Program-made: the position numbers and the translations under genes
The notes under the pieces: model-generated
Seen by the model: the letters and a program-made list of their open reading frames with translations, nothing else
Told to the model about the DNA's origin: nothing
Database searches by the model: none
In this document: piece after piece, positions 1 through 38,288 of the stretch
Layout: every line of letters begins with the position of its first letter
Position numbering within the stretch: the stretch's first letter is position 1
Source of the DNA: Clavelina lepadiformis
Lineage: Eukaryota
Direction: 5' to 3'
NCBI RefSeq assembly: GCF_947623445.1
Contig: NC_135248.1
Location: 2,598,977 to 2,662,976, forward strand
DNA length: 64,000 nt

Positions 1-2461
1 TGCCCAACTCCGAATGAAGTATGGATTGTTGGGTACTCAATAGTACATCATGTGTATAGACAGCACGGATCAATATATTTTGTTCCTTTTTCTTCTGCTC
101 TCCCAAACCCACAGTAACCTCCCATCAGGAGAATCCAGAAGTCTAAACCATAGGTCGGCAACCAGCGGCTCTTTCATCTCTGTGCTCTGGTTCCCGCCAC
201 TCAGAGCCAATGAGCTGATTTAGGAAAACTTAATGTGATTAGCTAATGGTGGTTATTAGTGTCACGATGTAATAACTTAATGCGTTTGTCTGATTATTAT
301 TCAGATTGTTTTATGGTGATGTGGAAAATCTTATATAAACACTACCCAGTGGTTTTCGCGGGCATACAACGCATGACTGCTTGCCACTCACGTGATCCTA
401 AGTTTGTTTTTGTTCGAGGTCGCATGACTTGGATATTGGTCTTTGTTTGATGACTCTGCGGATGTTCATCGTTGTAGTGAGAATTTTGTGAGGTTAACTA
501 CTGAAGTTTTTACGTCTAACTGTAAAGCATTGGTTCGAATTATACATATAGCGTTAGGTTTTTTGTTTTAAGTATCCAATTAGGTGTTGTGGATCTGAGT
601 AGGCTTTAGTTTGGCGGAAACGAAACCAAATGGCTCTTTCAATGCTAAAGGTTGCCGACCCGTGACTAAACAATTCGCGTTTGACCACATTTTCTACTTT
701 GTTCTCCGGGATACCCAGATTACTCACCTAAAGTAATTCATGGTCGAACCGTTGATATTTTACCGCTTGGTATAGCAAGCATGACTTGTTTTGCAAGTTT
801 TTTTAGGCATTCTGGTGACTTCATCATACCATCCTAGTTAGTAATGTGACGGTTACGTCACGAGTCACGAGTTGTTTTCGAAATGCTGGAGTTTTATTTT
901 GGCATCTTGCAATTCAGTTGTTGATCGGACTTGAATTCTCTTCTAATGACGTTCAGATAAATTACCTCGCTTGATCTGGTGTGCCATATATATACTGTTG
1001 TCATGTTTGCAATTATTCCTTTACGTATCGATTTCACTGGTTACTACTGCGCAATGTAACATTCAGTCAGCTTTGCCCGAAGGTGAAAGCCTTTGTGTCT
1101 AATAATAAATAAAAATGGGAACTTTATCATTTAGTAATATGCATAGACAGAATTTAAGCAACTAACAGCATAGTCACGCCGTTTGAGAAATGAGAACTCA
1201 TATCGTTGAAGAAGAAGTAAAACAAGTTATTACCATCAACCGTCCTCGCTCATACTATAGTAATAGTCGTCAGTGTACGCGGTCTTTATGGCGAATATGT
1301 TTGTTGTGTAATACTTCACACAAGTAATACAGCAACGAAAATACTTATTTGTCATAGGAAATCGCAATTTGAAGAAGTAAGGGTAAGTTAAGGGCTTTAA
1401 TTTTTAGAGAATGGCGTATTGCAGTGTTGTTCTATTCATCTGGTATAAGTTATACCATGAACACTTTTTAGAAATTCTGATTCTGAAACATCCACTTTCA
1501 AGCGCAATTTATTGGTAAATGTCCAAGCTTCATGACCATAGATGGAAATTGGAAGAAAAACTGATTTAAAAAATGAGAGCTTAGCGGATATTAGAAAGGC
1601 CTCGCTTGTTGAAGTTCACGTATGACTGCACTTGCTTTTAAATTCAATCTTTGGTCGATCATGAGTTGCGTTACCAGGCGTTTGACTCCCACCTGCTTCG
1701 GTGTTTCTCCGCAGACTTGAAAAGAAAACCAATGAAAACCGAGTAAGGGTTTCAAGAGATTAAATTCCTCGGTTTTCTTTACGATTATTTTTATCTCGAA
1801 ATGAACAATCGCAAATAAACAAAGATCTCTGGCAACCACATTCACAGTGGACGGTGACTTGCAACTGTTTAATGTCTATTTTTCAAACAGAAACAACCTT
1901 TAGAACGTTTGTACCGCAGTTTAATGGCTATTATAATACTATTTAATGGTTGCTGTCAATATCATACTTGTGCAACGCTCTCCAAAGTTAAATTCGAAGC
2001 ACTCAATGTTACGTTTTTAGGGTCAGAAAAGCATACGTAGGTATTTTTGCGTATTCCTAAAAAGTTTGCAAATCTGGGAAAAAAATCGTTAAGAATAGAA
2101 CATGTTGTCCAAAAATAGAATAAAAAGCATTCGTTGTTAAATTTAGTAAACTTACCTACCCAAGCATAACTAGGCCAGCACAGAACACGAAAGCAAACAA
2201 TAATATATGTGAGTTTAAACAGTGCATTAAACCTTTAATTTTAAATCCATTTTTCTAATTTCAACTTAGAAAAACGTCTGTTGGTTAAAATGTGATTATC
2301 AGGATCAGCAAAGAAGAAAATAAAGCAAATAAATGACTCAAAATTTATACATATCGAATATTATTACGCAAATGAGTAACTTTTTGGTTACTAGTTACTG
2401 GAATTTTTCGAGTACTGTGTTATATTTTAATTTGGTAAATAAGTTAATTAACGCATGACAG

Positions 2462-2469
2462 TGACGTCA
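2462..2469. promoter_or_regulatory. Perfect CRE palindrome TGACGTCA upstream of the U1 collectin gene. Conserved in all five units (U2 ~10958, U3 ~19459, U4 ~26463, U5 ~32901).
   Basis: Motif reading only. It lies ~390 bp upstream of the ATG in U3-U5, and ~1.2 kb upstream in U1/U2 because of the MITE. A TATA-like ctatttataca sits ~115 bp upstream of the ATG. Confidence 0.3.
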
Positions 2470-2718
2470 GTACGACAAAGCAAATTCACAGTACACTGGT
2501 AGTAGCCGCATAAGATATACGTCACATTTATCTACCTGTCTCAGAGACATAATGTATTTGTTAAAGTCTTCGACCTTTTGAAATTGCTCCAGGGTAATAC
2601 TTTAAATTATTTTACTCGACACTATATCGCTTAACAAAGTGGTCAAGTCTATATGCAATATAGTACTTATATTTTTTAAATATTGCAATGCCTGTTTTTT
2701 AATGTTGCAGTTTAAATA

Positions 2719-3522
2719 AGGTACCTGTACCGAATAAGATCCAGTCCCTAATAAGGCCCATTGCTCATATTTCGCAAACCCGTGCAAATAAATGAAAGAT
2801 TTTGTCCCTACATAAAAACTAGTATAAATTCATGATGGTTTACCAGATTTCATCCTTGTCACGTGATCAACCGATTCGCTAGAGCACAACAAAAATTTGA
2901 TATTTGCAGTTAAGATGGTTTTGTTAATTTAGAAAAAAAAGTAAGTGAGAATTTGGCCGGTTAAATGAACTGTTGTCAGCCGGCTGAAGTTTTCATGTAA
3001 CAACCAACTTAGTATTGAAAAGGATAATGCACTTTTTTTTGCAAAAATTTTTCTGATGATAAAAATGTGACATTTTTTTGGTGGATGCCACATGCGCCTA
3101 ATAAGGCCCATACAAGATGCTTGGCTAATTGATGTCCAGACTTCAAGAGTGGTTCCAGTCATCAGTTGGCAAATTGTTGCAGTTACTTTGATGCGCCCAG
3201 TGGAATCTTTTTAAATGTTTGTACAACTTAAAATGTGAAATTTCTAATAATGTTATATGTTGTCTATTACTTTGTTTTGAATCAAAATACTCACAAAATT
3301 GGTGGGCCTTATTAGGAGCCTATGCTCCTAATAAGGCCCATTTTTTGGAATTTTTAATTTCTTTATAAGAATTTTTTGGAGGGTTGTCAGGTAATGTGGT
3401 TTTAATATGTTGTAGTCCTATACCCTCACTAATAGAATACGATTCTTCAGTCTATTCTCATTTATGGTTCTTGAGTTATTTTCAAAAAAGTGTTAGGTGG
3501 GCCTTATTCGGTACAGGTACCT
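2719..3522. mobile_element. 804-bp Tc1/mariner-type MITE (non-autonomous) with TA target-site duplication. Lies in the proximal promoter of the U1 collectin gene.
   Basis: Terminal inverted repeats AGGTACCTGTACCGAATAAG ... CTTATTCGGTACAGGTACCT. TA on both flanks. Internal palindromes cctaataaggccc/gggccttattagg, including a 42-bp perfect palindrome at ~3301-3342. The empty site gt(t/g)taaaTAataggac is preserved in U3, U4 and U5. No ORF. Confidence 0.8.
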
Positions 3523-3661
3523 TAATAGGACTATTTGTACCAAAAACCACGTCATAAGTGCCCGCAAAAATATCGTTTATGTTGTTTTTATTTTCAATGT
3601 TCAACCTTAAGTCTATTTTCTAATAGATTAAGTCATTGTTCTGAAAAGTAATCACTAAGAC

Positions 3662-3914
3662 ATGATGATGATGATGCTTGTATGCTTCTTATTTGTCACC
3701 GCATCACTTGTAAACGGACAAGATTACTTGACTTGCTTGAGAAACAGTGACGCATTTGCTGGTATCAACCCTCAAGACACAGTATCCAACATTCGGGGCC
3801 CGCCAGGTTACCCTGGTAAACGGGGAAGTCCAGGTGACAGGGGTCTACAAGGTGACAAAGGTTCCAAGGGTGAACCCGGATCATCCGACCGTGAAGAAAT
3901 TAGACGCTTAAGAG
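3662..3914 (+). CDS. collectin-like C-type lectin, exon 1 of 4 (U1): signal peptide plus collagen-like region
   Basis: ORF 3662-3925 encodes MMMMMLVCFLFVTASLVNG (signal peptide) then GPPGYPGKRGSPGDRGLQGDKGSKGEPGSS, which is 10 Gly-X-Y triplets. Donor is AG|GTGTGC at 3915, phase 1. Confidence 0.7.
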
Positions 3915-4073
3915 GTGTGCGTTAGATCATACACTGACGTAGTGAATTGAACTGTTTCAATTTTCTCCTGATTTTATTTGCAATACATTATGTGGTCATA
4001 CTTGTAAGCTTTCAAAAATCATGTGACAATTTTGTTAGTTATGAATGTTTTATGCAGCTGATTTGCTTTTCAG

Positions 4074-4139
4074 AAACCCAAGCTCTTATAAATATCGCCA
4101 TAAGACCACTTCAGGACAAAATATCACGCCTGTGTCAAG
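4074..4139 (+). CDS. collectin-like gene, exon 2 (U1): neck
   Basis: Acceptor ttttcag|, 66 nt, phase 1 to phase 1, encoding ETQALINIAIRPLQDKISRLCQ. Donor AAG|GTTTGG. The acceptor choice is supported because a 1-bp deletion in U3 just upstream of it keeps this frame but breaks the alternative (tatgcag|ctg). Confidence 0.55.
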
Positions 4140-4240
4140 GTTTGGTGCCGTTGTTAATAATAATGTTTTCTTTGATATGATCTTATCGAGTTTTTAGATT
4201 TGTTAAAAAATAACCTGACTTTTTTCATCCTATCAGAAGT
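4091..4240 (+). repeat. 150-bp direct duplication flanking the MULE-like insert, copy A. Contains the 3' 49 nt of exon 2 plus its donor. Copy B is at 5430-5578.
   Basis: Sequence aatatcgccataagaccacttcaggacaaaatatcacgcctgtg(t/c)caaggtttg...cctatcagaagt occurs once in U3, U4 and U5 but twice in U1/U2. The two copies are ~8% diverged. Confidence 0.8.
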
Positions 4241-5429
4241 GGTATACCGACACTTAATCACGCGACACTTAATCACTCGACACTTAATCACCGACACATA
4301 ATCACTAGAACATTTAATCACGCGACACATAATCACTTGGATGCGACAGCACTTGGACAGCGCCTTTGTCTATACTCTATAGCCTGTCTATACCGTCTTT
4401 GTTCTTTCAACTGTACACAGTACATTTTGAACTTGTTCCCGGTCTTATTTCTGCAGCAGTTTACTGCCTCGTTCAAAATAAAACGCGAGCAACCTACGAT
4501 CGCTTCCTTGATGCAATTAAAACAATGATCCCCACTGCTGCACCGGAATGCGTTTTGCTCGATTTTGAGACTGCCGCAGTAAGTGCTTTCCGCACAGCAT
4601 TTCCTACTGCAAATGTTAGGAGTTGTTATTTTCACCTTACACAAAGCGTCCTGCGCAAAGTTAATGAAATTGGCATGAAATGTGACTACGAGTCTGATGA
4701 GTGATGACGAATTAAGAACAGCTGATAGGTGTTTACCAGCCTTAGCCATGGTCCCTTCCTCTGACGTAGTCGAGTCATTTCTGATCTTAGCTGATAGCAT
4801 GCCCGATCACGAGAAGATGCCTGAGCTGCTTTCGTATTTCGAACACACATATATCAGAGGCAGACGACATCCGGGACGTGGTGAAAATTACGGCTCAGCC
4901 ATCTTTCCAATCGAAAGTTGGAATCATTACGAAGCCGGGGCAGGTTGCATTGCAAGAACCACAAATGCAGTCGAAGGTTGGCATTTTGGTCTCGAAGTGC
5001 TTTTTCAATGCCACCACCCGACATTGTGGACTTTCATACAGGGAATTGAAAAAGACATTCAAATGCAACGTGCAAAGTTTCTGCAAGGAATTGCTGGTAC
5101 TCAACCTTCTATTCCAATACGGTACAAGGCACTGAAACTGCGCGTGCAAAACACAGTTGACCGTTATCTGTCAAGAGATTTTAGTTTATCTTCGTGCAGT
5201 TGCTTACATTTCCCATGCATGACATTGTTACCGAGTGTGTACCGTAGCCTTATCTGCGCAAGCAATGTTTAATCATTTTAACAAGTTCTTTTCAGGTTTA
5301 TATTTGTTTTTTCGTGTGTAGACATGCAATTTTCGATACTGTAAATGTGTGATTAAATGTCCGAGTGATTAGGCCTATGTGTCGGTGATTAAGTGTCGCG
5401 TGATTAAGTGTCACCAAACCATCAGAAGT
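4241..5429 (+). mobile_element. MULE (Mutator-like) DNA transposon remnant in intron 2 of the U1 collectin gene
   Basis: Terminal inverted repeats of ~85-95 bp (4241-4336 and 5347-5429) built from tandem 14-bp subrepeats cgacacttaatcac (gtgattaagtgtcg at the other end). Internal ORFs 4366-4704 and 4682-5272 (frameshifted) carry the MULE core motif LLDFETAAVSAFRTAFPTANVRSCYFHLTQSV and the motif TTNAVEGWHFGL. The ~300 aa total is too short to be autonomous. Confidence 0.6.
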
Positions 5430-5578
5430 AATATCGCCATAAGACCACTTCAGGACAAAATATCACGCCTGTGCCAAGGTTTGATGCCGTTGTTAATAAT
5501 GATGTTTCTTTGATATGATCTTATCGAGTTATTAGATTTGTTAAAAAAGAACCCCACTTTTTTCATCCTATCAGAAGT
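5430..5578 (+). repeat. 150-bp flanking duplication, copy B. Carries a second potential donor (CCAAG|GTTTGA) 1.3 kb downstream of exon 2.
   Basis: See copy A. Confidence 0.8.
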
Positions 5579-6004
5579 AACGCCATGCGAGCAAAGTTGT
5601 TTTGTTTGACTGTGTTTTCGCTGTTTTCTGCGCACGTACGAAAATTCTCCTGCTGGTCGGCTACATTCTGCCCTTTCACGCTTTAGATTTAAATTCATTT
5701 AAAATAAATTCAACAGGATGTTATGAAAGCCATTATAACTGGCGTTGAAAAGTACGTAGTTCAGACCGAAAATGCTAGTTCTTGACTATCCCTTGGAAGC
5801 TTGTAGTATCAACCATGCTCAGAAATCAGGAACGTATCTGAAAGTCTTTAGTCGGCCTATACTAAGCTAATAAAAAATTGAAAATTTGTTATTTAACTCG
5901 TTTCTTCTTTGTACTTCTTCCTAAATGATATACTATGCTTATCAATGCTGACACTGGCAGTTTCTTATTGGATTAATTACTTTTTACAACTACTTCTTTC
6001 CAAG

Positions 6005-6152
6005 TTGCTGAAAGTGGTTGGTATACGCCGTTTAACGGATATCAATATCGCCTTACTGAAACTGAACAAAACTGGCAAGAAAGTCGACGTTTGTGCCAAG
6101 CAATGGGCGGTGATCTGGCCGCTGTTGGAATGAGGAACGTCGTCATTCGAAG
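6005..6152 (+). CDS. collectin-like gene, exon 3 (U1): N-terminal half of the C-type lectin domain
   Basis: Acceptor ccaag|, 148 nt, phase 1. Encodes (V)AESGWYTPFNGYQYRLTETEQNWQESRRLCQAMGGDLAAVGMRNVVIR, a typical CTLD start (GW..F.G..Y....T..W..A...C...GG.LA). Donor AG|GTTAGA. Confidence 0.7.
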
Positions 6153-6260
6153 GTTAGAAGTGGAATAAAACTGTCACATAAATGAAATATTACCACAACC
6201 ACGTCCAGAAATGTGCATCACTGTAATGGCAGAAGACAACGAAGTAACGTTTTTTTGCAG

Positions 6261-6525
6261 GAAACTTCTCACCGAAGTATTTAAATTTGTCCAAAATGTG
6301 TGGATAGGACTGAATGACATTTCCCGAGAAGGACAGTGGATGTGGATAGACGGTGTACAAGCGGCTGAAGGAAACGTCAACTGGTTAGCTGGTGAACCAA
6401 ACAATTCAGGAGATGAAGATTGTGCTGTGGTGAATGTGCCTGGCCACAACGGTGCAGTCGATTATCCATGTTCCTGGACCAAAATCGCTTTATGTGAAAA
6501 AATTGTCACAGACACTTGTCAGTAA
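6261..6525 (+). CDS. collectin-like gene, exon 4 (U1): C-terminal half of the CTLD with EPN motif, then stop
   Basis: Acceptor tttttttgcag|. Encodes KLLTEVFKFVQNVWIGLNDISREGQWMWIDG...AGEPNNSGDEDCAVVN...ALCEK. Stop TAA at 6523-6525. AATAAA at ~6654 and ~6666. Confidence 0.75.
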
Positions 6526-8116
6526 GAGTTTGTGCAAAACTTGTGTCGTCTGCTTTTGATTGCAAAATTCCGTTTGCTGTCATCCATCTGAGTATTACGT
6601 CATTACGTATAATCTTCCAGTGAACGCTTTAAAAACACGGATAAACTTGTAAAAATAAAACTATAAATAAACTACCTAACACGAAGCAGAGGTGATTAAT
6701 AGCAGAATGCACGTAAAACATTTTATTCGACTCTGTTTAACTTGCATGTATGTTTTCTACGACGTCCTGCATTCATCAGCAGCGTTAAAGTTGGAATGAT
6801 GTAAATAACGGAAATTAATCAATAAACAACAACAACAATGTTTTAACAAGATAAAGAATATCATTGCTTCTCAGCCGGTGAGTCGCAAAGCTTTTTCAGG
6901 TGGGCCACGTAGATTGCTGAAATGTTTCTTTGCAAAACTGCAATATCTGTACCGCAAATGGGCGCCACCCACCGGCGGACCCAGCAACAACTAATATTGC
7001 ACACAAAAAAAGACAATTGAAGTATGGACAAGTGTTCAGTCGAGTCGTTGCAGTGAACGATAGCGTAATACGCGGACTAATTTGAATGCTGCAGACCCAA
7101 CGGTTCATAAGATTTCACCTACGCATGAAATTGCAGAGATGATTGCAAAATTAACATGAGGTATCATATAAGTATATAATCGTTTTCCCTCAATGCCAAC
7201 ACAGTTACAACAAAAACAAAAAAAGAAAATAAGCATTAATGCTGGTTATGCAAAAGCACATGACGAAGGTGTTAAACTGCTTACTTATCAATAATGCAAT
7301 TCTTTGGGTTGATTTGAACGGTATGACTTCGCTTTACATGTATATTTACTACAGAAATGGCTGCAAGAACAAGAGTTATAATGATGCAACACTGCCCAAT
7401 AAATGCGATCGTAAACATACACCGCAAAGTTAAGATTATTATCATTCCCATAATTTTGTGTGTCATTGTAAACGCTGTACTATTATTTGGTTCAAAAGTA
7501 GTGGATGGTTGTTGTTTTGCACCGACTGGTAATAGGATCGCGGGTTGTTAATACGTCAACAGTAGCAATCGTACACAACAACGCAAGGCTTGAAAGGGAA
7601 CATTGTGAAAGCCGTTTAGAAAAAGGTACAATGTGCTTTGTCCTAAGGTGCAAATCGATTTTTTCCAGAAAACAAAGTAAGTCCTACAGGACAAAAAGCC
7701 AAACTTCGTTATTTCAGTTTGTTTCATTTCAAAGAACGCTATTGAGACTAAAAACTCTGATACTGACAGTGAACGGTTTATCAGCTTACAGAAACAGTGT
7801 AGTTTGAAAAGTTTTCATGCGTGAAATTTGAGAAAACATTTTGCAACATGTTAATTGATTGAAGATCCTGAAAAGTATAGAAAATTAATTAAGATTAAAG
7901 ATAACAAAAATGTAAAAGTAAAACAGCAAGAAAAATGATGACAAGTTGAGGGAAAATCATTTGTTTACTACGCGACTGGTTACAGTTTTCGTGAATCGGT
8001 CACCGACATTTTGCCGTCACACAACACACAAAATTTAAAACCAAAGCTCAGTTAGTGTTATCATAAATACATAAGTAGCCTTTACACAATACACATAAAA
8101 ACAAATATACACAGTA

Positions 8117-8150
8117 TATATATATATATATATATATATATACTGTGTAA
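8117..8150. repeat. (TA)n microsatellite embedded in a palindrome cacagta(ta)n tactgtg. Also at 16613-16646.
   Basis: Direct reading. U3 and U4 have only a few TA units at the orthologous site. Confidence 0.9.
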
Positions 8151-11100
8151 TGTGTATATAAACTACCCGCAATTTGTCTTAACATTTTGTGTGTTATGCA
8201 AAGTGTAGTCGGTTGTGAAATAAATGGTAAGAAAAAAACGAACCGTAGCAGATATGACAGATAAATAAGCGCGTTGGTAGATCTCGTTATTTTAGAATGA
8301 GAGGCAAGTGCCGTAATAAGTTAACTTGAAAGTAATAAAAGGCTTTGTGTAAGTTCACTTGAAAATTTATGTTCATGAGTATTTATAAGAACCAAGCATT
8401 TAGCTCCAAAAGTCTGCCGCAAAATGTCGCAAATTTACCACTCACTGTAAACTGGGTGTTGAGAATTTTGACGCTTCAATGTAAAATCGACTTGCATGCC
8501 CAACTCCGAATGAAGTATGGATTGTTGGGTACTCAATAGTACATCATGTGTATAGACAGCACGGATCAATATATTTTGTTCCTTTTTCTTCTGCTCTCCC
8601 AAACCCACAGTAACCTCCCATCAGGAGAATCCAGAAGTCTAAACCATAGGTCGGCAACCAGCGGCTCTTTCATCTCTGTGCTCTGGTTCCCGCCACTCAG
8701 AGCCAATGAGCTGATTTAGGAAAACTTAATGTGATTAGCTAATGGTGGTTATTAGTGTCACGATGTAATAACTTAATGCGTTTGTCTGATTATTATTCAG
8801 ATTGTTTTATGGTGATGTGGAAAATCTTATATAAACACTACCCAGTGGTTTTCGCGGGCATACAACGCATGACTGCTTGCCACTCACGTGATCCTAAGTT
8901 TGTTTTTGTTCGAGGTCGCATGACTTGGATATTGGTCTTTGTTTGATGACTCTGCGGATGTTCATCGTTGTAGTGAGAATTTTGTGAGGTTAACTACTGA
9001 AGTTTTTACGTCTAACTGTAAAGCATTGGTTCGAATTATACATATAGCGTTAGGTTTTTTGTTTTAAGTATCCAATTAGGTGTTGTGGATCTGAGTAGGC
9101 TTTAGTTTGGCGGAAACGAAACCAAATGGCTCTTTCAATGCTAAAGGTTGCCGACCCGTGACTAAACAATTCGCGTTTGACCACATTTTCTACTTTGTTC
9201 TCCGGGATACCCAGATTACTCACCTAAAGTAATTCATGGTCGAACCGTTGATATTTTACCGCTTGGTATAGCAAGCATGACTTGTTTTGCAAGTTTTTTT
9301 AGGCATTCTGGTGACTTCATCATACCATCCTAGTTAGTAATGTGACGGTTACGTCACGAGTCACGAGTTGTTTTCGAAATGCTGGAGTTTTATTTTGGCA
9401 TCTTGCAATTCAGTTGTTGATCGGACTTGAATTCTCTTCTAATGACGTTCAGATAAATTACCTCGCTTGATCTGGTGTGCCATATATATACTGTTGTCAT
9501 GTTTGCAATTATTCCTTTACGTATCGATTTCACTGGTTACTACTGCGCAATGTAACATTCAGTCAGCTTTGCCCGAAGGTGAAAGCCTTTGTGTCTAATA
9601 ATAAATAAAAATGGGAACTTTATCATTTAGTAATATGCATAGACAGAATTTAAGCAACTAACAGCATAGTCACGCCGTTTGAGAAATGAGAACTCATATC
9701 GTTGAAGAAGAAGTAAAACAAGTTATTACCATCAACCGTCCTCGCTCATACTATAGTAATAGTCGTCAGTGTACGCGGTCTTTATGGCGAATATGTTTGT
9801 TGTGTAATACTTCACACAAGTAATACAGCAACGAAAATACTTATTTGTCATAGGAAATCGCAATTTGAAGAAGTAAGGGTAAGTTAAGGGCTTTAATTTT
9901 TAGAGAATGGCGTATTGCAGTGTTGTTCTATTCATCTGGTATAAGTTATACCATGAACACTTTTTAGAAATTCTGATTCTGAAACATCCACTTTCAAGCG
10001 CAATTTATTGGTAAATGTCCAAGCTTCATGACCATAGATGGAAATTGGAAGAAAAACTGATTTAAAAAATGAGAGCTTAGCGGATATTAGAAAGGCCTCG
10101 CTTGTTGAAGTTCACGTATGACTGCACTTGCTTTTAAATTCAATCTTTGGTCGATCATGAGTTGCGTTACCAGGCGTTTGACTCCCACCTGCTTCGGTGT
10201 TTCTCCGCAGACTTGAAAAGAAAACCAATGAAAACCGAGTAAGGGTTTCAAGAGATTAAATTCCTCGGTTTTCTTTACGATTATTTTTATCTCGAAATGA
10301 ACAATCGCAAATAAACAAAGATCTCTGGCAACCACATTCACAGTGGACGGTGACTTGCAACTGTTTAATGTCTATTTTTCAAACAGAAACAACCTTTAGA
10401 ACGTTTGTACCGCAGTTTAATGGCTATTATAATACTATTTAATGGTTGCTGTCAATATCATACTTGTGCAACGCTCTCCAAAGTTAAATTCGAAGCACTC
10501 AATGTTACGTTTTTAGGGTCAGAAAAGCATACGTAGGTATTTTTGCGTATTCCTAAAAAGTTTGCAAATCTGGGAAAAAAATCGTTAAGAATAGAACATG
10601 TTGTCCAAAAATAGAATAAAAAGCATTCGTTGTTAAATTTAGTAAACTTACCTACCCAAGCATAACTAGGCCAGCACAGAACACGAAAGCAAACAATAAT
10701 ATATGTGAGTTTAAACAGTGCATTAAACCTTTAATTTTAAATCCATTTTTCTAATTTCAACTTAGAAAAACGTCTGTTGGTTAAAATGTGATTATCAGGA
10801 TCAGCAAAGAAGAAAATAAAGCAAATAAATGACTCAAAATTTATACATATCGAATATTATTACGCAAATGAGTAACTTTTTGGTTACTAGTTACTGGAAT
10901 TTTTCGAGTACTGTGTTATATTTTAATTTGGTAAATAAGTTAATTAACGCATGACAGTGACGTCAGTACGACAAAGCAAATTCACAGTACACTGGTAGTA
11001 GCCGCATAAGATATACGTCACATTTATCTACCTGTCTCAGAGACATAATGTATTTGTTAAAGTCTTCGACCTTTTGAAATTGCTCCAGGGTAATACTTTA

Positions 11101-11214
11101 AATTATTTTACTCGACACTATATCGCTTAACAAAGTGGTCAAGTCTATATGCAATATAGTACTTATATTTTTTAAATATTGCAATGCCTGTTTTTTAATG
11201 TTGCAGTTTAAATA

Positions 11215-12018
11215 AGGTACCTGTACCGAATAAGATCCAGTCCCTAATAAGGCCCATTGCTCATATTTCGCAAACCCGTGCAAATAAATGAAAGATTTTG
11301 TCCCTACATAAAAACTAGTATAAATTCATGATGGTTTACCAGATTTCATCCTTGTCACGTGATCAACCGATTCGCTAGAGCACAACAAAAATTTGATATT
11401 TGCAGTTAAGATGGTTTTGTTAATTTAGAAAAAAAAGTAAGTGAGAATTTGGCCGGTTAAATGAACTGTTGTCAGCCGGCTGAAGTTTTCATGTAACAAC
11501 CAACTTAGTATTGAAAAGGATAATGCACTTTTTTTTGCAAAAATTTTTCTGATGATAAAAATGTGACATTTTTTTGGTGGATGCCACATGCGCCTAATAA
11601 GGCCCATACAAGATGCTTGGCTAATTGATGTCCAGACTTCAAGAGTGGTTCCAGTCATCAGTTGGCAAATTGTTGCAGTTACTTTGATGCGCCCAGTGGA
11701 ATCTTTTTAAATGTTTGTACAACTTAAAATGTGAAATTTCTAATAATGTTATATGTTGTCTATTACTTTGTTTTGAATCAAAATACTCACAAAATTGGTG
11801 GGCCTTATTAGGAGCCTATGCTCCTAATAAGGCCCATTTTTTGGAATTTTTAATTTCTTTATAAGAATTTTTTGGAGGGTTGTCAGGTAATGTGGTTTTA
11901 ATATGTTGTAGTCCTATACCCTCACTAATAGAATACGATTCTTCAGTCTATTCTCATTTATGGTTCTTGAGTTATTTTCAAAAAAGTGTTAGGTGGGCCT
12001 TATTCGGTACAGGTACCT
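11215..12018. mobile_element. Same MITE, U2 copy
   Basis: U1 coordinates + 8496. Confidence 0.8.
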
Positions 12019-12157
12019 TAATAGGACTATTTGTACCAAAAACCACGTCATAAGTGCCCGCAAAAATATCGTTTATGTTGTTTTTATTTTCAATGTTCAA
12101 CCTTAAGTCTATTTTCTAATAGATTAAGTCATTGTTCTGAAAAGTAATCACTAAGAC

Positions 12158-12410
12158 ATGATGATGATGATGCTTGTATGCTTCTTATTTGTCACCGCAT
12201 CACTTGTAAACGGACAAGATTACTTGACTTGCTTGAGAAACAGTGACGCATTTGCTGGTATCAACCCTCAAGACACAGTATCCAACATTCGGGGCCCGCC
12301 AGGTTACCCTGGTAAACGGGGAAGTCCAGGTGACAGGGGTCTACAAGGTGACAAAGGTTCCAAGGGTGAACCCGGATCATCCGACCGTGAAGAAATTAGA
12401 CGCTTAAGAG
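12158..12410 (+). CDS. collectin-like gene, exon 1 (U2, identical to U1)
   Basis: ORF 12158-12421 is identical to 3662-3925. Confidence 0.7.
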
Positions 12411-12569
12411 GTGTGCGTTAGATCATACACTGACGTAGTGAATTGAACTGTTTCAATTTTCTCCTGATTTTATTTGCAATACATTATGTGGTCATACTTG
12501 TAAGCTTTCAAAAATCATGTGACAATTTTGTTAGTTATGAATGTTTTATGCAGCTGATTTGCTTTTCAG

Positions 12570-12635
12570 AAACCCAAGCTCTTATAAATATCGCCATAAG
12601 ACCACTTCAGGACAAAATATCACGCCTGTGTCAAG
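12570..12635 (+). CDS. collectin-like gene, exon 2 (U2)
   Basis: U1 coordinates + 8496; identical sequence. Confidence 0.55.
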
Positions 12636-12736
12636 GTTTGGTGCCGTTGTTAATAATAATGTTTTCTTTGATATGATCTTATCGAGTTTTTAGATTTGTT
12701 AAAAAATAACCTGACTTTTTTCATCCTATCAGAAGT

Positions 12737-13925
12737 GGTATACCGACACTTAATCACGCGACACTTAATCACTCGACACTTAATCACCGACACATAATCA
12801 CTAGAACATTTAATCACGCGACACATAATCACTTGGATGCGACAGCACTTGGACAGCGCCTTTGTCTATACTCTATAGCCTGTCTATACCGTCTTTGTTC
12901 TTTCAACTGTACACAGTACATTTTGAACTTGTTCCCGGTCTTATTTCTGCAGCAGTTTACTGCCTCGTTCAAAATAAAACGCGAGCAACCTACGATCGCT
13001 TCCTTGATGCAATTAAAACAATGATCCCCACTGCTGCACCGGAATGCGTTTTGCTCGATTTTGAGACTGCCGCAGTAAGTGCTTTCCGCACAGCATTTCC
13101 TACTGCAAATGTTAGGAGTTGTTATTTTCACCTTACACAAAGCGTCCTGCGCAAAGTTAATGAAATTGGCATGAAATGTGACTACGAGTCTGATGAGTGA
13201 TGACGAATTAAGAACAGCTGATAGGTGTTTACCAGCCTTAGCCATGGTCCCTTCCTCTGACGTAGTCGAGTCATTTCTGATCTTAGCTGATAGCATGCCC
13301 GATCACGAGAAGATGCCTGAGCTGCTTTCGTATTTCGAACACACATATATCAGAGGCAGACGACATCCGGGACGTGGTGAAAATTACGGCTCAGCCATCT
13401 TTCCAATCGAAAGTTGGAATCATTACGAAGCCGGGGCAGGTTGCATTGCAAGAACCACAAATGCAGTCGAAGGTTGGCATTTTGGTCTCGAAGTGCTTTT
13501 TCAATGCCACCACCCGACATTGTGGACTTTCATACAGGGAATTGAAAAAGACATTCAAATGCAACGTGCAAAGTTTCTGCAAGGAATTGCTGGTACTCAA
13601 CCTTCTATTCCAATACGGTACAAGGCACTGAAACTGCGCGTGCAAAACACAGTTGACCGTTATCTGTCAAGAGATTTTAGTTTATCTTCGTGCAGTTGCT
13701 TACATTTCCCATGCATGACATTGTTACCGAGTGTGTACCGTAGCCTTATCTGCGCAAGCAATGTTTAATCATTTTAACAAGTTCTTTTCAGGTTTATATT
13801 TGTTTTTTCGTGTGTAGACATGCAATTTTCGATACTGTAAATGTGTGATTAAATGTCCGAGTGATTAGGCCTATGTGTCGGTGATTAAGTGTCGCGTGAT
13901 TAAGTGTCACCAAACCATCAGAAGT
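12737..13925 (+). mobile_element. MULE-like element, U2 copy
   Basis: U1 coordinates + 8496; identical ORFs 12862-13200 and 13178-13768. Confidence 0.6.
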
Positions 13926-14500
13926 AATATCGCCATAAGACCACTTCAGGACAAAATATCACGCCTGTGCCAAGGTTTGATGCCGTTGTTAATAATGATG
14001 TTTCTTTGATATGATCTTATCGAGTTATTAGATTTGTTAAAAAAGAACCCCACTTTTTTCATCCTATCAGAAGTAACGCCATGCGAGCAAAGTTGTTTTG
14101 TTTGACTGTGTTTTCGCTGTTTTCTGCGCACGTACGAAAATTCTCCTGCTGGTCGGCTACATTCTGCCCTTTCACGCTTTAGATTTAAATTCATTTAAAA
14201 TAAATTCAACAGGATGTTATGAAAGCCATTATAACTGGCGTTGAAAAGTACGTAGTTCAGACCGAAAATGCTAGTTCTTGACTATCCCTTGGAAGCTTGT
14301 AGTATCAACCATGCTCAGAAATCAGGAACGTATCTGAAAGTCTTTAGTCGGCCTATACTAAGCTAATAAAAAATTGAAAATTTGTTATTTAACTCGTTTC
14401 TTCTTTGTACTTCTTCCTAAATGATATACTATGCTTATCAATGCTGACACTGGCAGTTTCTTATTGGATTAATTACTTTTTACAACTACTTCTTTCCAAG

Positions 14501-14648
14501 TTGCTGAAAGTGGTTGGTATACGCCGTTTAACGGATATCAATATCGCCTTACTGAAACTGAACAAAACTGGCAAGAAAGTCGACGTTTGTGCCAAGCAAT
14601 GGGCGGTGATCTGGCCGCTGTTGGAATGAGGAACGTCGTCATTCGAAG
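14501..14648 (+). CDS. collectin-like gene, exon 3 (U2)
   Basis: U1 coordinates + 8496; identical sequence. Confidence 0.7.
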
Positions 14649-14756
14649 GTTAGAAGTGGAATAAAACTGTCACATAAATGAAATATTACCACAACCACGT
14701 CCAGAAATGTGCATCACTGTAATGGCAGAAGACAACGAAGTAACGTTTTTTTGCAG

Positions 14757-15021
14757 GAAACTTCTCACCGAAGTATTTAAATTTGTCCAAAATGTGTGGA
14801 TAGGACTGAATGACATTTCCCGAGAAGGACAGTGGATGTGGATAGACGGTGTACAAGCGGCTGAAGGAAACGTCAACTGGTTAGCTGGTGAACCAAACAA
14901 TTCAGGAGATGAAGATTGTGCTGTGGTGAATGTGCCTGGCCACAACGGTGCAGTCGATTATCCATGTTCCTGGACCAAAATCGCTTTATGTGAAAAAATT
15001 GTCACAGACACTTGTCAGTAA
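14757..15021 (+). CDS. collectin-like gene, exon 4 (U2)
   Basis: ORF 14707-15021 is identical to 6211-6525. Confidence 0.75.
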
Positions 15022-18000
15022 GAGTTTGTGCAAAACTTGTGTCGTCTGCTTTTGATTGCAAAATTCCGTTTGCTGTCATCCATCTGAGTATTACGTCATT
15101 ACGTATAATCTTCCAGTGAACGCTTTAAAAACACGGATAAACTTGTAAAAATAAAACTATAAATAAACTACCTAACACGAAGCAGAGGTGATTAATAGCA
15201 GAATGCACGTAAAACATTTTATTCGACTCTGTTTAACTTGCATGTATGTTTTCTACGACGTCCTGCATTCATCAGCAGCGTTAAAGTTGGAATGATGTAA
15301 ATAACGGAAATTAATCAATAAACAACAACAACAATGTTTTAACAAGATAAAGAATATCATTGCTTCTCAGCCGGTGAGTCGCAAAGCTTTTTCAGGTGGG
15401 CCACGTAGATTGCTGAAATGTTTCTTTGCAAAACTGCAATATCTGTACCGCAAATGGGCGCCACCCACCGGCGGACCCAGCAACAACTAATATTGCACAC
15501 AAAAAAAGACAATTGAAGTATGGACAAGTGTTCAGTCGAGTCGTTGCAGTGAACGATAGCGTAATACGCGGACTAATTTGAATGCTGCAGACCCAACGGT
15601 TCATAAGATTTCACCTACGCATGAAATTGCAGAGATGATTGCAAAATTAACATGAGGTATCATATAAGTATATAATCGTTTTCCCTCAATGCCAACACAG
15701 TTACAACAAAAACAAAAAAAGAAAATAAGCATTAATGCTGGTTATGCAAAAGCACATGACGAAGGTGTTAAACTGCTTACTTATCAATAATGCAATTCTT
15801 TGGGTTGATTTGAACGGTATGACTTCGCTTTACATGTATATTTACTACAGAAATGGCTGCAAGAACAAGAGTTATAATGATGCAACACTGCCCAATAAAT
15901 GCGATCGTAAACATACACCGCAAAGTTAAGATTATTATCATTCCCATAATTTTGTGTGTCATTGTAAACGCTGTACTATTATTTGGTTCAAAAGTAGTGG
16001 ATGGTTGTTGTTTTGCACCGACTGGTAATAGGATCGCGGGTTGTTAATACGTCAACAGTAGCAATCGTACACAACAACGCAAGGCTTGAAAGGGAACATT
16101 GTGAAAGCCGTTTAGAAAAAGGTACAATGTGCTTTGTCCTAAGGTGCAAATCGATTTTTTCCAGAAAACAAAGTAAGTCCTACAGGACAAAAAGCCAAAC
16201 TTCGTTATTTCAGTTTGTTTCATTTCAAAGAACGCTATTGAGACTAAAAACTCTGATACTGACAGTGAACGGTTTATCAGCTTACAGAAACAGTGTAGTT
16301 TGAAAAGTTTTCATGCGTGAAATTTGAGAAAACATTTTGCAACATGTTAATTGATTGAAGATCCTGAAAAGTATAGAAAATTAATTAAGATTAAAGATAA
16401 CAAAAATGTAAAAGTAAAACAGCAAGAAAAATGATGACAAGTTGAGGGAAAATCATTTGTTTACTACGCGACTGGTTACAGTTTTCGTGAATCGGTCACC
16501 GACATTTTGCCGTCACACAACACACAAAATTTAAAACCAAAGCTCAGTTAGTGTTATCATAAATACATAAGTAGCCTTTACACAATACACATAAAAACAA
16601 ATATACACAGTATATATATATATATATATATATATATACTGTGTAATGTGTATATAAACTACCCGCAATTTGTCTTAACATTTTGTGTGTTATGCAAAGT
16701 GTAGTCGGTTGTGAAATAAATGGTAAGAAAAAAACGAACCGTAGCAGATATGACAGATAAATAAGCGCGTTGGTAGATCTCGTTATTTTAGAATGAGAGG
16801 CAAGTGCCGTAATAAGTTAACTTGAAAGTAATAAAAGGCTTTGTGTAAGTTCACTTGAAAATTTATGTTCATGAGTATTTATAAGAACCAAGCATTTAGC
16901 TCCAAAAGTCTGCCGCAAAATGTCGCAAATTTACCACTCACTGTAAACTGGGTGTTGAGAATTTTGACGCTTCAATGTAAAATCGACTTGCATGCCCAAC
17001 TCCGAATGAAGTATGGATTGTTGGGTACTCAATAGTACATCATGTGTATAGACAGCACGGATCAATATATTTTGTTCCTTTTTCTTCTGCTCTCCCAAAC
17101 CCACAGTAACCTCCCATCAGGAGAATCCAGAAGTCTAAACCATAGGTCGGCAACCAGCGGCTCTTTCATCTCTGTGCTCTGGTTCCCGCCACTCAGAGCC
17201 AATGAGCTGATTTAGGAAAACTTAATGTGATTAGCTAATGGTGGTTATTAGTGTCACGATGTAATAACTTAATGCGTTTGTCTGATTATTATTCAGATTG
17301 TTTTATGGTGATGTGGAAAATCTTATATAAACACTACCCAGTGGTTTTCGCGGGCATACAACGCATGACTGCTTGCCACTCACGTGATCCTAAGTTTGTT
17401 TTTGTTCGAGGTCGCATGACTTGGATATTGGTCTTTGTTTGATGACTCTGCGGATGTTCATCGTTGTAGTGAGAATTTTGTGAGGTTAACTACTGAAGTT
17501 TTTACGTCTAACTGTAAAGCATTGGTTCGAATTATACATATAGCGTTAGGTTTTTTGTTTTAAGTATCCAATTAGGTGTTGTGGATCTGAGTAGGCTTTA
17601 GTTTGGCGGAAACGAAACCAAATGGCTCTTTCAATGCTAAAGGTTGCCGACCCGTGACTAAACAATTCGCGTTTGACCACATTTTCTACTTTGTTCTCCG
17701 GGATACCCAGATTACTCACCTAAAGTAATTCATGGTCGAACCGTTGATATTTTACCGCTTGGTATAGCAAGCATGACTTGTTTTGCAAGTTTTTTTAGGC
17801 ATTCTGGTGACTTCATCATACCATCCTAGTTAGTAATGTGACGGTTACGTCACGAGTCACGAGTTGTTTTCGAAATGCTGGAGTTTTATTTTGGCATCTT
17901 GCAATTCAGTTGTTGATCGGACTTGAATTCTCTTCTAATGACGTTCAGATAAATTACCTCGCTTGATCTGGTGTGCCATATATATACTGTTGTCATGTTT

Positions 18001-19856
18001 GCAATTATTCCTTTACGTATCGATTTCACTGGTTACTACTGCGCAATGTAACATTCAGTCAGCTTTGCCCGAAGGTGAAAGCCTTTGTGTCTAATAATAA
18101 ATAAAAATGGGAACTTTATCATTTAGTAATATGCATAGACAGAATTTAAGCAACTAACAGCATAGTCACGCCGTTTGAGAAATGAGAACTCATATCGTTG
18201 AAGAAGAAGTAAAACAAGTTATTACCATCAACCGTCCTCGCTCATACTATAGTAATAGTCGTCAGTGTACGCGGTCTTTATGGCGAATATGTTTGTTGTG
18301 TAATACTTCACACAAGTAATACAGCAACGAAAATACTTATTTGTCATAGGAAATCGCAATTTGAAGAAGTAAGGGTAAGTTAAGGGCTTTAATTTTTAGA
18401 GAATGGCGTATTGCAGTGTTGTTCTATTCATCTGGTATAAGTTATACCATGAACACTTTTTAGAAATTCTGATTCTGAAACATCCACTTTCAAGCGCAAT
18501 TTATTGGTAAATGTCCAAGCTTCATGACCATAGATGGAAATTGGAAGAAAAACTGATTTAAAAAATGAGAGCTTAGCGGATATTAGAAAGGCCTCGCTTG
18601 TTGAAGTTCACGTATGACTGCACTTGCTTTTAAATTCAATCTTTGGTCGATCATGAGTTGCGTTACCAGGCGTTTGACTCCCACCTGCTTCGGTGTTTCT
18701 CCGCAGACTTGAAAAGAAAACCAATGAAAACCGAGTAAGGGTTTCAAGAGATTAAATTCCTCGGTTTTCTTTACGATTATTTTTATCTCGAAATGAACAA
18801 TCGCAAATAAACAAAGATCTCTGGCAACCACATTCACAGTGGACGGTGACTTACGACTGTTTAGTGTTTATTTTTCAAACGGAAACAACTCTTAGAACGT
18901 TTGTACCGCAGTTTAATGGCCACTATAATACTATTTAATGGCTGCTATCAATATCATACTTGTGCAACGCTCTCCAGAGTTAAATTCGAAGCACTCAATG
19001 CTACGTTTTTTTAGGATCAGAAAAGCATACGTAGCCATTTTTGCGTATTCCTAACAAGTTTGCAAATCTGGGAAAAAAATTCGTTAAGTGTAGAACATGT
19101 TGTCCAAAAATAGAATAAAAAGGCATTCGGTGTTAAAATTAGTAAACTTACCTACCCATGCATAACTAGGCCAGCACAGAACACGAAATCAAACAATAAT
19201 ATATGTAAGTTTAAACAGTGCATTAAACCTTTAATTTTAAATCCAATTTTCTAATTTCAACTTAGAAAAACGTCTGTTGGTTAAAATGTGATCATCAGGA
19301 TCAGCAAAAAAGAAAATAAAAGCAAATAAATGACTCAAAATTTATACATATCGAATATTATTACACAAATGAGTAACTTTTTGGTTACTAGTTACTGGAA
19401 TTTTTCGATTACTGTGTTATATATTAATTTGGTAAATAAGTTAATTAACTCATGACAGTGACGTCAGTACGTCTAAGCAAATTCACAGTACACTGGTAGT
19501 AGCCGCATAAGATATACGTCAGATTTATCTACCTGTCTCAGAGACATAATGTATTTGTTAAAGTCTTCGACCTTTTGAAATTGCTCCAGCGTAATACTTT
19601 AAATTATATTACTCGGCATTATATCGCTTGACAGAGTGGTCAAGTCTATATGCATTATAGTACTTATTTTTTAAATATTGCAATGCCTGTTTTTTAATGT
19701 TGCAGTTTAAACAATAGGACTATTTATACAAAAAACAACGTCATAAGTGCCCGTGAAAATATCGTTTATGTTGTTTTTATTTTCAATGTTCAACCTTACG
19801 CCTATTTTCTTATAGATTAAGTCTTTGTTCTGAAAAGTAAACACTAAGACAAAATA

Positions 19857-20103
19857 ATGATGATGCTTGTATGCTTCTTATTTGTCACTGCATCACTTGT
19901 AAACGGACAAGATTACTTGACTTGCTTGAGAAACAGTGACGCATTTGCTGGTATCAACCCCCAAGACACAGCATCCAACATTCGGGGCCCGCCAGGTTAC
20001 CCTGGTAAACGTGGAAGTCCCGGTGACAGGGGTCTACAAGGTGACAAAGGATCCAAAGCTGAACCCGGATCATCCGACCGTGAAGAAATTAGACGCTTAA
20101 GAG
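19857..20103 (+). CDS. collectin-like gene, exon 1 (U3)
   Basis: ORF 19857-20114 encodes MMMLVCF... and a collagen region GSK-AEP-GSS, where one Gly is replaced by Ala and interrupts the Gly-X-Y run. Donor AG|GTATGC. Confidence 0.65.
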
Positions 20104-21474: not shown

Positions 21475-24251
21475 GAGTTTGTGCAAAACTTGTGTCGTCT
21501 GTTTTTGATTGCAAAATTACGTGTGTTGTCATCCTTCTCCGTCTTACGTCATGACGTATAACCTTCTCAGTCTTACGTCATGACTCTGTTTAACTTGCAT
21601 GAATGTTTTCCACGACGTCCTGCAATCATCAGCAGCGTTAGAGTTAGAATGATTTAAAATACGGAAATTTATCAATAAACAACAACAATGTTTTAACAAG
21701 ATAAAAATTATCATTGCTTCACAGCCGGTGACTCGCGATGCTATTTCAGGTGGGCCACGTAGATTGCTGAAATGTTTCTTTGCAAAACTAGAATATCTGT
21801 ACCGCAAAGGGGCGCCACAAATCAGCGGACCCAGAAACAATTAAAATTGAACACAAACAAAGACAATTGAAGCATGGACAAGTGTACAGTTGAGTCATTG
21901 CAGTGAATGATAGCGTTATACGTGGACTAATTTGAATGCAACAGACCCAACGATTTATAAGAATTCACTTACGCATGAAGTTGCAGAGATGCTTGCAAAA
22001 TTAACGTGAGGTATCTTATAAGTATAAAATCATGTTCCCTCAATGCCAACACAGATACAAAAAAAAAACAATCAAACAAAAAAAAGCATTAATGCTGGTT
22101 ATGCAAAAGCACATGACGAAGGTGTTAAACCGCTCACTTATCAATAATGGTCATTTCTTTTCCATAATTCCATAATTCTTTAGGTTATTTTGAATGGTAC
22201 GACTTCTCTTTGCATGTATGTTTACTACAGAAATGGCTGCAAGAACAAGAGTTATAGTGATGCAACACTGCCAACAAAATTCCATCGTAAACATGCACCG
22301 CACAGTTAAGATTATTATCATTACCTTGAATTTGTGTGTCATTGTAAACGCTGTACTATTATTTGGTTCAAATGTAATGCATCGTTGTTGTTTTGCACCG
22401 ACTGGTACTAGGATCACGAGTTATTAATACTTCAACGGAAACAATCGTACACAACAACGCAAGGCTTGAAAGGGCACATTGCCAAAGCCGTTTAGAAAAA
22501 GGTAGAATGTGCTTTGTCCTAAGGTACAATTCGATTTTTTCCAGAAAACAGATAAGTCCTACAAGACAAAAAGGCAAACTTCGTTATTTCAGTTTGTTTC
22601 ATTTCAAAGAACGCTATTGAGACTAAAAACTCTCATACTGACAGTGAACGGTTTATCAGCTTACAGAAACAGTGTAGTTTGAAAGATATTCATGCGTGAA
22701 ATTCGAGAAAAAATTTTGCAACATGATAACTAATTGAAGATCTTGAAAGGTATAGAAAATTAATTAAGATTAAAGATAACAAAAATGTAAAAGTAAAACA
22801 GCAAGAAAACTGATGACAAGTTGAGGGAAAATCATTTGTTTTCTACGCGACTGGTTACAGTTTTCGTGAATCGATTACCGACTTTTTGCTTTCACATAAC
22901 ACACAAAATTTAAAACCAAAGCGCAATTAGTTTTATTATAAATACAAAAGTAGCTTTTATTCATAAAAACATATATACACGATGTAAATATATACTGTGT
23001 ATATAAACTAACTGTAATTTGTCTTAACATTTTGTGTGTTATGCAAAGTGTAGGCGGTAGTGAAATAAATGGTAAGAAAAAAACGAACCGTAGCAGATAT
23101 GACAGTTAAAAAAGCGCATTGGTATCTCTCGTTATTTTAGAAAGAGAGGCAAGTGCCATAATAAGTTAACTTGAAAGTAATAAAAAGCTTTTGGTAAGTT
23201 CACTTGAAAATTCATGTTCATGAGTATTTATAAGAACCAAGCATTTATCTCCAAAACTCACCGCAAAACGTCGCAAATTTACCGCTCACTGTAAGCTGGG
23301 TGTTGGGAATTTTGACGCTTCAATGTAAAATCGACTTGCATGCCCAACTCCGAATGAAGTATGGGTTGTTGGGTACTCAATAGTACATCATGTGCATAGA
23401 CAGCATGGATCAATATATTTTGTTCCTTTTTCTTCTGCTCTCCCAAACCCACAGTAACCTCCCATCAGGAGAATCCAGAAGTCTAAACCATAGGTCGGCA
23501 ACCCGCGGCTCTTTCATCTCTGTGCTCTGGCTCCCGCCACGCAGAGCCAATGAGCTGATTTAGGAAAACTTAATGTGAATAAATAATGGTGGTTATTAGT
23601 GTCACGATGTAATAACTTAATGCGTTTGTCTGATTATTATTCAGATTGTTTTATGCTGATGTGGAAAATCTTATATAAACACTACCCAGTGGTTTTCGCG
23701 GGCATACTACGCATGACTGCTTGTCACTCACGTGATCCTAAGTTTGTTTTTCGTTCGAGGTCGCATGTCTTGGATGTTGGTCTTTGTTTGGTGACTATGC
23801 GGATGTTCATCGTTGTAGTAAGAATTTTGTGAGGGTAACTACTGAAGTTTTACGTCTAACTGTAAAGCATTAGTTCGAATTACATATGTAGCGTTAGGTT
23901 TTTTGTTTGAAGTAGTCAATTAGGAGTTGTGGTTCAGAGTAGGTTTGAGTTTGGAGGAAACGAGACCAAATGGCTCTTTCAATGCTAAAGGTTGTCAACC
24001 CGTGGCTAAACAATTCGCTTTTGACCGCATTTGCCACTTTGTTCTCCGGGATACCCAGATTACTCAACTAAAGTTATTCATGGTCGAACCGTTGACATTT
24101 TACCGCTTGGTATAGCTAGGCTTATCATACGTTCCGTTTTAGCCGGGACAATCCCTGTCTTTAAGGCTTTGTCCCGGCGTCCCGGTCAGTCAACCAAAAA
24201 GTCCCGCTTTGGCATTTAGTCAGCCAGCATTGGCCCTACTCTACACGAATA

Positions 24252-25054: not shown

Positions 25055-25441
25055 TATTAGCATGCTGTGATTGATCTGTTTAGCCAACTTGCTGAAGAGT
25101 GATGCCTGATGCGTGTTCCTGTTTCTTTGTAATAAATGTGAAAGTAATTGATACGTTATTGTAGCGGCTAATTGGGCCAGTAGTGGGTTGATTGTGAGCG
25201 CTTTCGCTAATTCAGTAATAGTAGGTTAGTAGGAGGAGGTGTTCTTTTTGCAGCTAGGTTATTGAAAGAACTTATTTCGTACCGGTAGGCTACTTGTTTG
25301 CATTTCATGTGCAAAAATCATTTGAATGTGGAAGCCTTTATCACCTGCAAAATTAATACTGATTTTTCCTGGTGAGATTGTTTTGAGAACATAAAGTCGA
25401 ATAAAGACTTCTTGAAGAAAGTATTGTCTACAGAAAAGTAT

Positions 25442-38192: not shown

Positions 38193-38288
38193 GTAAGTCA
38201 TTGTATGTTTGTCACCGAGTGCTTGATATCAGTATAATCGGATTATTCAAAGATAACAATAAGTAAACAAATATTTTTCATTTCGTAG

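Follow-up and report, generated by a model that had tools for sequence, protein, structure and literature searches.

The promoter of a collectin-like gene in the ascidian Clavelina lepadiformis harbors a non-autonomous DNA transposon, an element of 804 bp without coding capacity. We consider it likely that this non-coding element is a cut-and-paste transposon of C. lepadiformis that is mobilized in trans, most probably by a transposase of the IS630/Tc1/mariner type. In the window, i.e., the complete stretch of 64,000 nucleotides analysed here, the element is present in three copies, which lie in the units U1, U2 and U4 of an array of five collectin units (U1-U5, with three distinct units besides U1/U2). 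Only two independent insertions are visible among these copies. One of them is located in the proximal promoter of the U1/U2 lineage, where the corresponding sites of the three remaining units are empty, and the other one is located within a different transposon in U4.

Termini, size and internal motifs of the element

The element is delimited by short, perfect terminal inverted repeats (Table 1). At a tolerance of as many as three mismatches, the repeat AGGTACCTGTACCGAATAAG has six matches in the 64-kb window, which form three inverted pairs, and dinucleotide-preserving shuffles of the sequence yielded no match at all. No further copy and no solo terminus of the element was found in the window beyond the three copies. 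These align end to end, and their homology ends exactly at the termini. The initial annotation of this region had described terminal inverted repeats that are perfect over 20 bp, as well as a target-site duplication of TA. Both are present in the exactly realigned sequences: the repeats are perfect in all three copies, and TA stands on both sides of every copy.

Table 1. Positions of the transposon copies, their insertion sites and associated features in the window. Positions labeled "element" are counted from the first base of the element.
Feature	Position	Strand	Remarks
Copy 1, non-autonomous DNA transposon	2719-3522	+	804 bp; in the promoter of collectin unit U1
Left terminal inverted repeat, AGGTACCTGTACCGAATAAG	2719-2738	+	20 bp, 0 mismatches, 0 expected by chance
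Right terminal inverted repeat	3503-3522	-	20 bp; perfect reverse complement of the left repeat
Inverted pairs of AGGTACCTGTACCGAATAAG	2719-2738/3503-3522; 11215-11234/11999-12018; 24252-24271/25035-25054		
Motif copy 1, CCGAATAAGATCC (CCGAATAAGGTCC in element copy 3)	2730-2742 (element 12-24)	+	Within left terminal repeat
Motif, CCTAATAAGGCCC	2747-2759 (element 29-41)	+	Left subterminal
Motif, CCTAATAAGGCCC	3097-3109 (element 379-391)	+	Internal
Palindrome of two head-to-head motifs, GGGCCTTATTAGGAGC ctat GCTCCTAATAAGGCCC	3304-3339		Internal
Motif, left arm of palindrome	element 586-598	-	Internal; partner 609-621
Motif, right arm of palindrome	element 609-621	+	Internal; partner 586-598
Motif, GGGCCTTATTCGG	3499-3511 (element 781-793)	-	Within right terminal repeat
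Left TA of target-site duplication, copy 1	2717-2718		
Right TA of target-site duplication, copy 1	3523-3524		
Copy 2	11215-12018	+	100% identical to copy 1
TA flanks of copy 2	11213-11214 and 12019-12020		
Copy 3	24252-25054	+	803 bp; independent insertion within U4-specific element X
TA flanks of copy 3	24250-24251 and 25055-25056		
Element X, host of copy 3	24117-25665		U4-specific; termini TAGGC...GCCTA
Empty orthologous site, U3	19712-19713		CA in tttaaaCAatagg
Empty orthologous site, U4	26720-26721		Single TA in gtgtaaaTAatagg
Empty orthologous site, U5	33192-33193		CG in tttaaaCGatagg
TGACGTCA (CRE)	2462-2469		Conserved upstream of all units
U1 collectin-like gene	3662-6527	+	NCBI protein P0001 of C. 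lepadiformis

The element has a GC content of 34.7%, compared with 37.2% for the window, and its longest stop-free stretch comprises 93 codons. None of the four open reading frames of the element that were tested has a match in Pfam at E<=1, and no relatives of the 93-codon frame were found in a large protein collection. A search of the whole window against Rfam likewise gave no match, which implies that the element contains no part derived from a tRNA or snRNA. MITEs usually measure ~80-600 bp, with a customary upper limit at ~600-800 bp. The copies described here have 804 or 803 bp and are therefore at or just over this limit, so that "non-autonomous DNA transposon" is a safer label for them than MITE. 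If the element is folded as single-stranded DNA, the termini pair with each other and the internal palindrome forms a second paired region (z = -7.2).

A 13-nt motif, CCKAATAAGGCCC, occurs six times in each copy of the element and is absent elsewhere in the window. The outermost motif copies at the two ends of the element are in mirror orientation, as is expected of transposase binding sites, and we interpret the motif copies as probable, putative sites of this kind. The two copies at the left end resemble a tandem duplication, 17 bp in size, of the inner portion of the terminal repeat. In the interior, the palindrome formed by two head-to-head motifs has a perfect stem of 16 bp. Smaller nested elements delimited by the internal motif pairs (2747-3316 and 3327-3511) were considered as well and rejected, as neither pair is bordered by flanking duplications.

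Insertion sites and history of the collectin array

The filled site, gtttaaaTA-(804 bp)-TAatagg, is 806 bases longer than the corresponding sites in U3, U4 and U5, which are all of equal length and display no footprint. The filled site and the 14-base empty site have a common prefix of 10 bases and a common suffix of 7 bases, and this overlap restricts the duplication at copy 1 to at most 3 bp, i.e., TA, AA or TAA. The site of copy 3 reads gaaTA-(element)-TAttagc. TA is the sole option that fits both insertions, and we therefore regard it as the target-site duplication; with TA duplicated, the termini of the element are symmetric. Other duplications (TAA, AA, AAT, AT and TTAA) are excluded by the length arithmetic and the flanks of copy 3 taken together.

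The empty site was previously described as intact in U3-U5. It is indeed unoccupied in all three units, but the string quoted for it, tttaaaTAatagg, is found in exact form in none of them. In view of their equal length and the lack of footprints, one insertion into the U1/U2 lineage is a more parsimonious explanation than precise excision from all three units. The target dinucleotide is CG in U5, CA in U3, and TA in U4 and in U1/U2. This pattern is as expected if an ancestral CpG decayed to TA, which later would have served as the integration target. U5 additionally possesses a 31-bp tandem duplication (...TTTTAATATTGCAGTT..., approximately at 33150-33191), which is specific to this unit and abuts the empty target site exactly.

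The second copy of the element originated in a different way. Positions 1-10356 of the window are the same as positions 8497-18852, and the comparison of these 10,356 positions revealed no mismatch. The window thus begins with a perfect tract with a period of 8,496 bp, which covers positions 1-18852 (at least 2.2 periods) and has a sharp end at 18852, ~860 bp upstream of the empty site in U3. The tract overruns the left edge of the window, which implies the presence of at least three identical collectin units. Beyond position 18852, U3 is ~94% identical to U1, a value calculated from the identity over the whole alignment and from where the first mismatch occurs. Copy 2 lies within the perfect tract and was consequently made by tandem duplication of the element-bearing unit, not by transposition. 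The earlier observation that the element is found in the promoters of both U1 and U2 is thus correct with regard to the number of copies, while both copies together represent one insertion event. We also have to consider that the 100% identity of the U1 and U2 tract could be an assembly artefact instead of the result of recent amplification. C. lepadiformis is reported to have the highest tandem-repeat content among 30 animal genomes analysed in one study (bioRxiv 10.64898/2026.07.01.735963); for this species a 210-Mb assembly has been published, and a second assembly consists of ~44% repeats (PMC10884593, PMC10950049).

Copy 3 is 97.1% identical to copy 1, from which it differs by 22 substitutions (13 transitions and 9 transversions) and one 1-base indel. 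Apart from the TA on each side, its flanks are unrelated to those of copy 1. With different flanks and a TA pair of its own, the copy in U4 stems from a further insertion of this family that was independent of the first, as initially proposed. The homology of U4 to the other units stops at 24116, and in silico removal of copy 3 resolves this break as the insertion of element X. The latter is flanked by an 8-bp duplication, GGTATAGC (24109-24116) and GATATAGC (25666-25673), which is single in U1. Part of X has a relative of 85.6% identity at 46598-46831, and X is followed by a U4-specific deletion of the sequence corresponding to U1 812-1724. Since copy 3 is nested inside another transposon that is itself confined to U4, the window contains no empty site for this copy.

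Copy 1 and copy 3 differ by 2.9%, compared to 6.1-7.4% for the sequence surrounding them in U1 and U4 (92.6-93.9% identity). The copies are closer to each other than the flanks of their units, which suggests that both insertions postdate the divergence of the old units, in agreement with the evidence from the empty sites. The zero differences in the newest duplication in turn indicate that the insertion of copy 1 predates this duplication, although gene conversion among the units could blur all of these timing figures. The proposed polarity of the insertion, i.e., an entry of the element into the U1/U2 lineage after divergence of the units, is supported by the empty sites and the divergence figures alike. 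The further claim that the family was active during the expansion of the array has to be narrowed: the insertions followed the divergence of the old units and preceded the newest perfect duplication.

We propose that one integration would have struck a single collectin paralogue in its proximal promoter, at a distance of 139 bp from the ATG, and that the element-bearing unit would subsequently have been copied at least two times by perfect 8,496-bp tandem duplication, from which copy 2 would be derived. A separate integration would have struck the different transposon within U4. The order of events (divergence of the old units, insertion of the transposon, perfect tandem duplication) is readable from the array, and the element provides a clean, dated insertion marker in a young and still-expanding immune-lectin array of a colonial ascidian.

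Promoter context and collectin genes

The product of the U1 gene comprises a signal peptide, Gly-X-Y repeats, a neck and a C-type lectin domain with an EPN motif. Our spliced open-frame model of U1 encodes 221 aa and leaves out the neck exon of P0001. A search with this model retrieved matches annotated as C. lepadiformis "CD209 antigen-like protein", which are all located on one chromosome-scale record of 15.7 Mb, and these NCBI protein matches, with an identity of 91-100%, identify C. lepadiformis as the host. P0001 corresponds residue for residue to the exons of U1/U2 where the model overlaps and has one extra neck exon; P0003 matches U4, and the best match of P0002 is U5. The annotated protein has 242 aa in U1/U2 and 252-253 aa in U5 and U4, i.e., it is 10-11 residues shorter in the former. 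No NCBI protein matching U3 was present among the search hits. The series of start codons in U3 (19849-19872) reads ACAAAATAATGATGATG in place of ACATGATGATGATGATG and thereby lacks the first two ATGs. A neighboring gene on the plus strand (37065-43128) has a single open frame of 830 codons with several repeats of the LDL-receptor class A type and a 7TM domain of the rhodopsin type (PF00057, PF00001), and is predicted to encode an LDLa-containing GPCR.

The units had been regarded as near-identical paralogues apart from the transposon, a description that does not hold. They are 92-94% identical and display several indels, and U1/U2 differ from the other units by 6-8%. In particular, an intron insertion of ~1.2 kb (at about 4240-5430 and again at 12736-13926) is found only in U1/U2 and is absent from U3-U5. 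A MULE transposase domain (PF10551, E = 3.6e-11) lies within this insertion, which is flanked by a duplicated block of ~150 bp (4091-4240 versus 5430-5578, 94.7%), and this block holds the neck exon.

Between the end of copy 1 (3522) and the first ATG (3662), 139 bp were measured, so that the distance of ~140 bp given initially is accurate. Across the four distinct units, the proximal block of 140 bp between the element and the ATG has a mean column identity of 94%, and a CACGTCA motif is located within it. Upstream of the insertion point, a TACGTCA at 2520-2526 is conserved in all units. The insertion had been placed between a CRE and a TATA-like element, of which only the former is recovered: a conserved CRE is present at a distance of ~250 bp upstream from the insertion point, but the promoter possesses no canonical TATA box. 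The predicted shift of upstream elements by ~0.8 kb in U1/U2 is confirmed, as TGACGTCA and TACGTCA are both 806 bp further from the gene. This displacement, which affects all sequence beyond -139 and with it two conserved motifs of the ACGTCA type, is the only demonstrable consequence of the insertion.

The insertion may also have changed the transcription of the U1/U2 collectin genes, which we regard as conceivable but doubtful. The position of the element only 139 bp upstream of the ATG is consistent with such an effect, as is the separation of the conserved 140-bp proximal block from the conserved TGACGTCA and TACGTCA upstream of it. However, NCBI models intact genes for U1/U2, and one ACGTCA motif (3550-3556) together with the whole conserved proximal block still adjoins the gene. 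Moreover, the palindrome TGACGTCA is 14-fold over-represented in the window, with 13 occurrences versus 0.9 expected. Besides one occurrence per collectin unit, eight with unrelated flanks are found outside the array (at 35618, 36297, 37450, 53848, 54827, 58575, 61997 and 63137). Owing to this enrichment across the region, its presence upstream of the genes is weak evidence for a specific enhancer. A difference in expression between U1/U2 and the other units would furthermore not be assignable to the element, because the MULE-derived intron insertion and the 6-8% substitutions also distinguish them.

It is common for promoters in tandem families of immune genes to harbor transposon insertions. 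The present case implies no new mechanism, but represents an ordinary mobile-element insertion, by a known kind of element, into a repeat-rich tunicate genome. The array nevertheless offers a natural comparison of promoters with and without the element for studies of innate immunity in tunicates or of cis-regulation. Very recent amplification is seen only in the unit with the element and the MULE fragment, of which there are at least three base-identical copies of 8,496 bp. It is a long shot that this very recent amplification of the element-bearing unit alone would reflect altered expression followed by selection for dosage, or a promotion of amplification by mobile elements, and that, separately, the element would be mobilized through the 13-nt motif by a TA-targeting transposase that does not belong to the classical groups of Tc1/mariner.

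Superfamily assignment and comparison with known elements

The initial annotation classified the element as a Tc1/mariner-type MITE. Its nature as a non-autonomous terminal-inverted-repeat transposon with TA duplication is corroborated here, while its size is borderline for a MITE and its superfamily is deduced indirectly. Membership in Tc1/mariner is probable, judged by two characters, the TA duplication and the terminal repeats. In the mechanism that we propose, a transposase whose gene lies at another locus, and which most probably belongs to the IS630/Tc1/mariner superfamily, would bind to the 20-bp terminal repeats and to the reiterated CCKAATAAGGCCC. It would then excise the element and integrate it at TA with a 2-nt staggered cut, the repair of which would yield the flanking TA duplication. 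No Tc1/mariner transposase is encoded in the 64-kb window, where the large open reading frames are those of the MULE fragment, the lectin exons and the neighboring LDLa/7TM receptor gene. The preference for TA is deduced from two independent insertions (n=2).

Alternatively, the element could belong to another or undescribed lineage of TA-targeting transposases, whose TA duplication would be convergent with that of Tc1/mariner, but we consider this unlikely. Canonical elements start with NNAGGT in mariner and with CAGT in Tc1. The element described here starts with AGGTACC straight after the TA, in which the AGGT resembles that of mariner but is displaced by two bases with respect to NNAGGT. 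Such termini, which are canonical for neither Tc1 nor mariner, would suit a separate lineage, and the same applies to the internal head-to-head palindrome and the unusual number of internal motif copies (three, in a motif count of five to six). It would likewise agree with the lack of relatives in the searched collections and in the literature: an exact scan of metagenome, prokaryote-genome and viral contigs for the 20-bp terminus and a degenerate double-motif scan of metagenomes both yielded no match, and the literature provided only one unrelated chance match to the terminal and motif strings. However, these collections do not contain tunicate genomes, so that the empty scans say nothing on copy number and carry no weight in favor of a separate lineage. 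In addition, a strict TA duplication is the hallmark of Tc1/mariner among the described eukaryotic superfamilies.

An origin as a non-autonomous, "Tourist-like" PIF/Harbinger element (PHIS) with a 3-bp duplication of TAA/TTA is very improbable. A TAA duplication with an element of 803 bp is arithmetically allowed for copy 1, and TAA-GGTACC...GGTACC-TTA can be read at both insertions. The targets are AT-rich, and the motif GGGCCTTATTMGG loosely resembles the GC-rich termini of PIF/Tourist elements. Copy 3, however, is flanked by TAA on the left versus TAT on the right, which is not a 3-bp direct repeat, and a TAA duplication renders the termini asymmetric by one base. PIF/Harbinger duplicates TWA, and the related ISL2EU duplicates AT in A/AT/T (PMC4482050). 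The latter duplication suits neither flank: the sequence reads ...AAATA up to the left junction and TAATAGG from the right junction, and no placement of the element ends puts AT on both sides.

That all three copies arose by segmental duplication or recombination instead of transposition applies to copy 2, but is practically untenable for the remainder, as copy 1 and copy 3 share nothing past their exact termini, both have inverted repeats and TA at their borders, and each of the three empty paralogous sites holds exactly one dinucleotide. Other superfamilies were rejected from their duplications. PiggyBac and Kolobok duplicate TTAA, which is missing at the left junction of both insertions, and hAT, Mutator and P duplicate 7-10 bp, which exceeds the maximum of 3 bp obtained from the comparison of filled and empty sites.

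The probable assignment to IS630/Tc1/mariner finds its closest parallels in non-autonomous elements and MITEs derived from Tc1/mariner, e.g., Stowaway in plants, MADE1 (derived from Hsmar1) in humans and "submariner" in pandoravirus. The element of C. lepadiformis shares with them the terminal inverted repeats, the TA duplication and the lack of coding sequence, as well as clean paralogous empty sites and an insertion close to a gene. It differs from them in several respects. Its 804 bp exceed the ~80-600 bp of typical MITEs, it starts with AGGT right after the TA and not with NNAGGT or CAGT, and it carries six 13-nt motifs, including an internal head-to-head pair. ISL2EU and PIF/Harbinger (PHIS) have AT-rich targets and short duplications in common with it, but duplicate AT in A/AT/T or TWA, respectively, in contrast to the TA observed here.

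A different kind of similarity exists to Tc1-like elements of the IR/DR type, such as Sleeping Beauty, Tc3 and Minos, in which repeats resembling the putative transposase sites are likewise located in the terminal repeat and further inside. As in these elements, the outer and the inner motif of the right arm are in the same orientation, 195 bp apart. By contrast, the motifs of the left arm are only 17 bp apart, and extra copies are present in the middle of the element. IR/DR elements have inverted repeats of ~200 bp with two motifs per end, compared to the perfect repeat of 20 bp in the element described here.

Among ascidians, a comparison by description is offered by Cimi-1, a MITE known from Ciona, which at ~0.2 kb is much shorter than the 804-bp element. 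Cimi-1 resembles the element of C. lepadiformis in being a non-autonomous inverted-repeat element of an ascidian genome that is found in and near genes (Simmen & Bird 2000, cited in PMC12865960).
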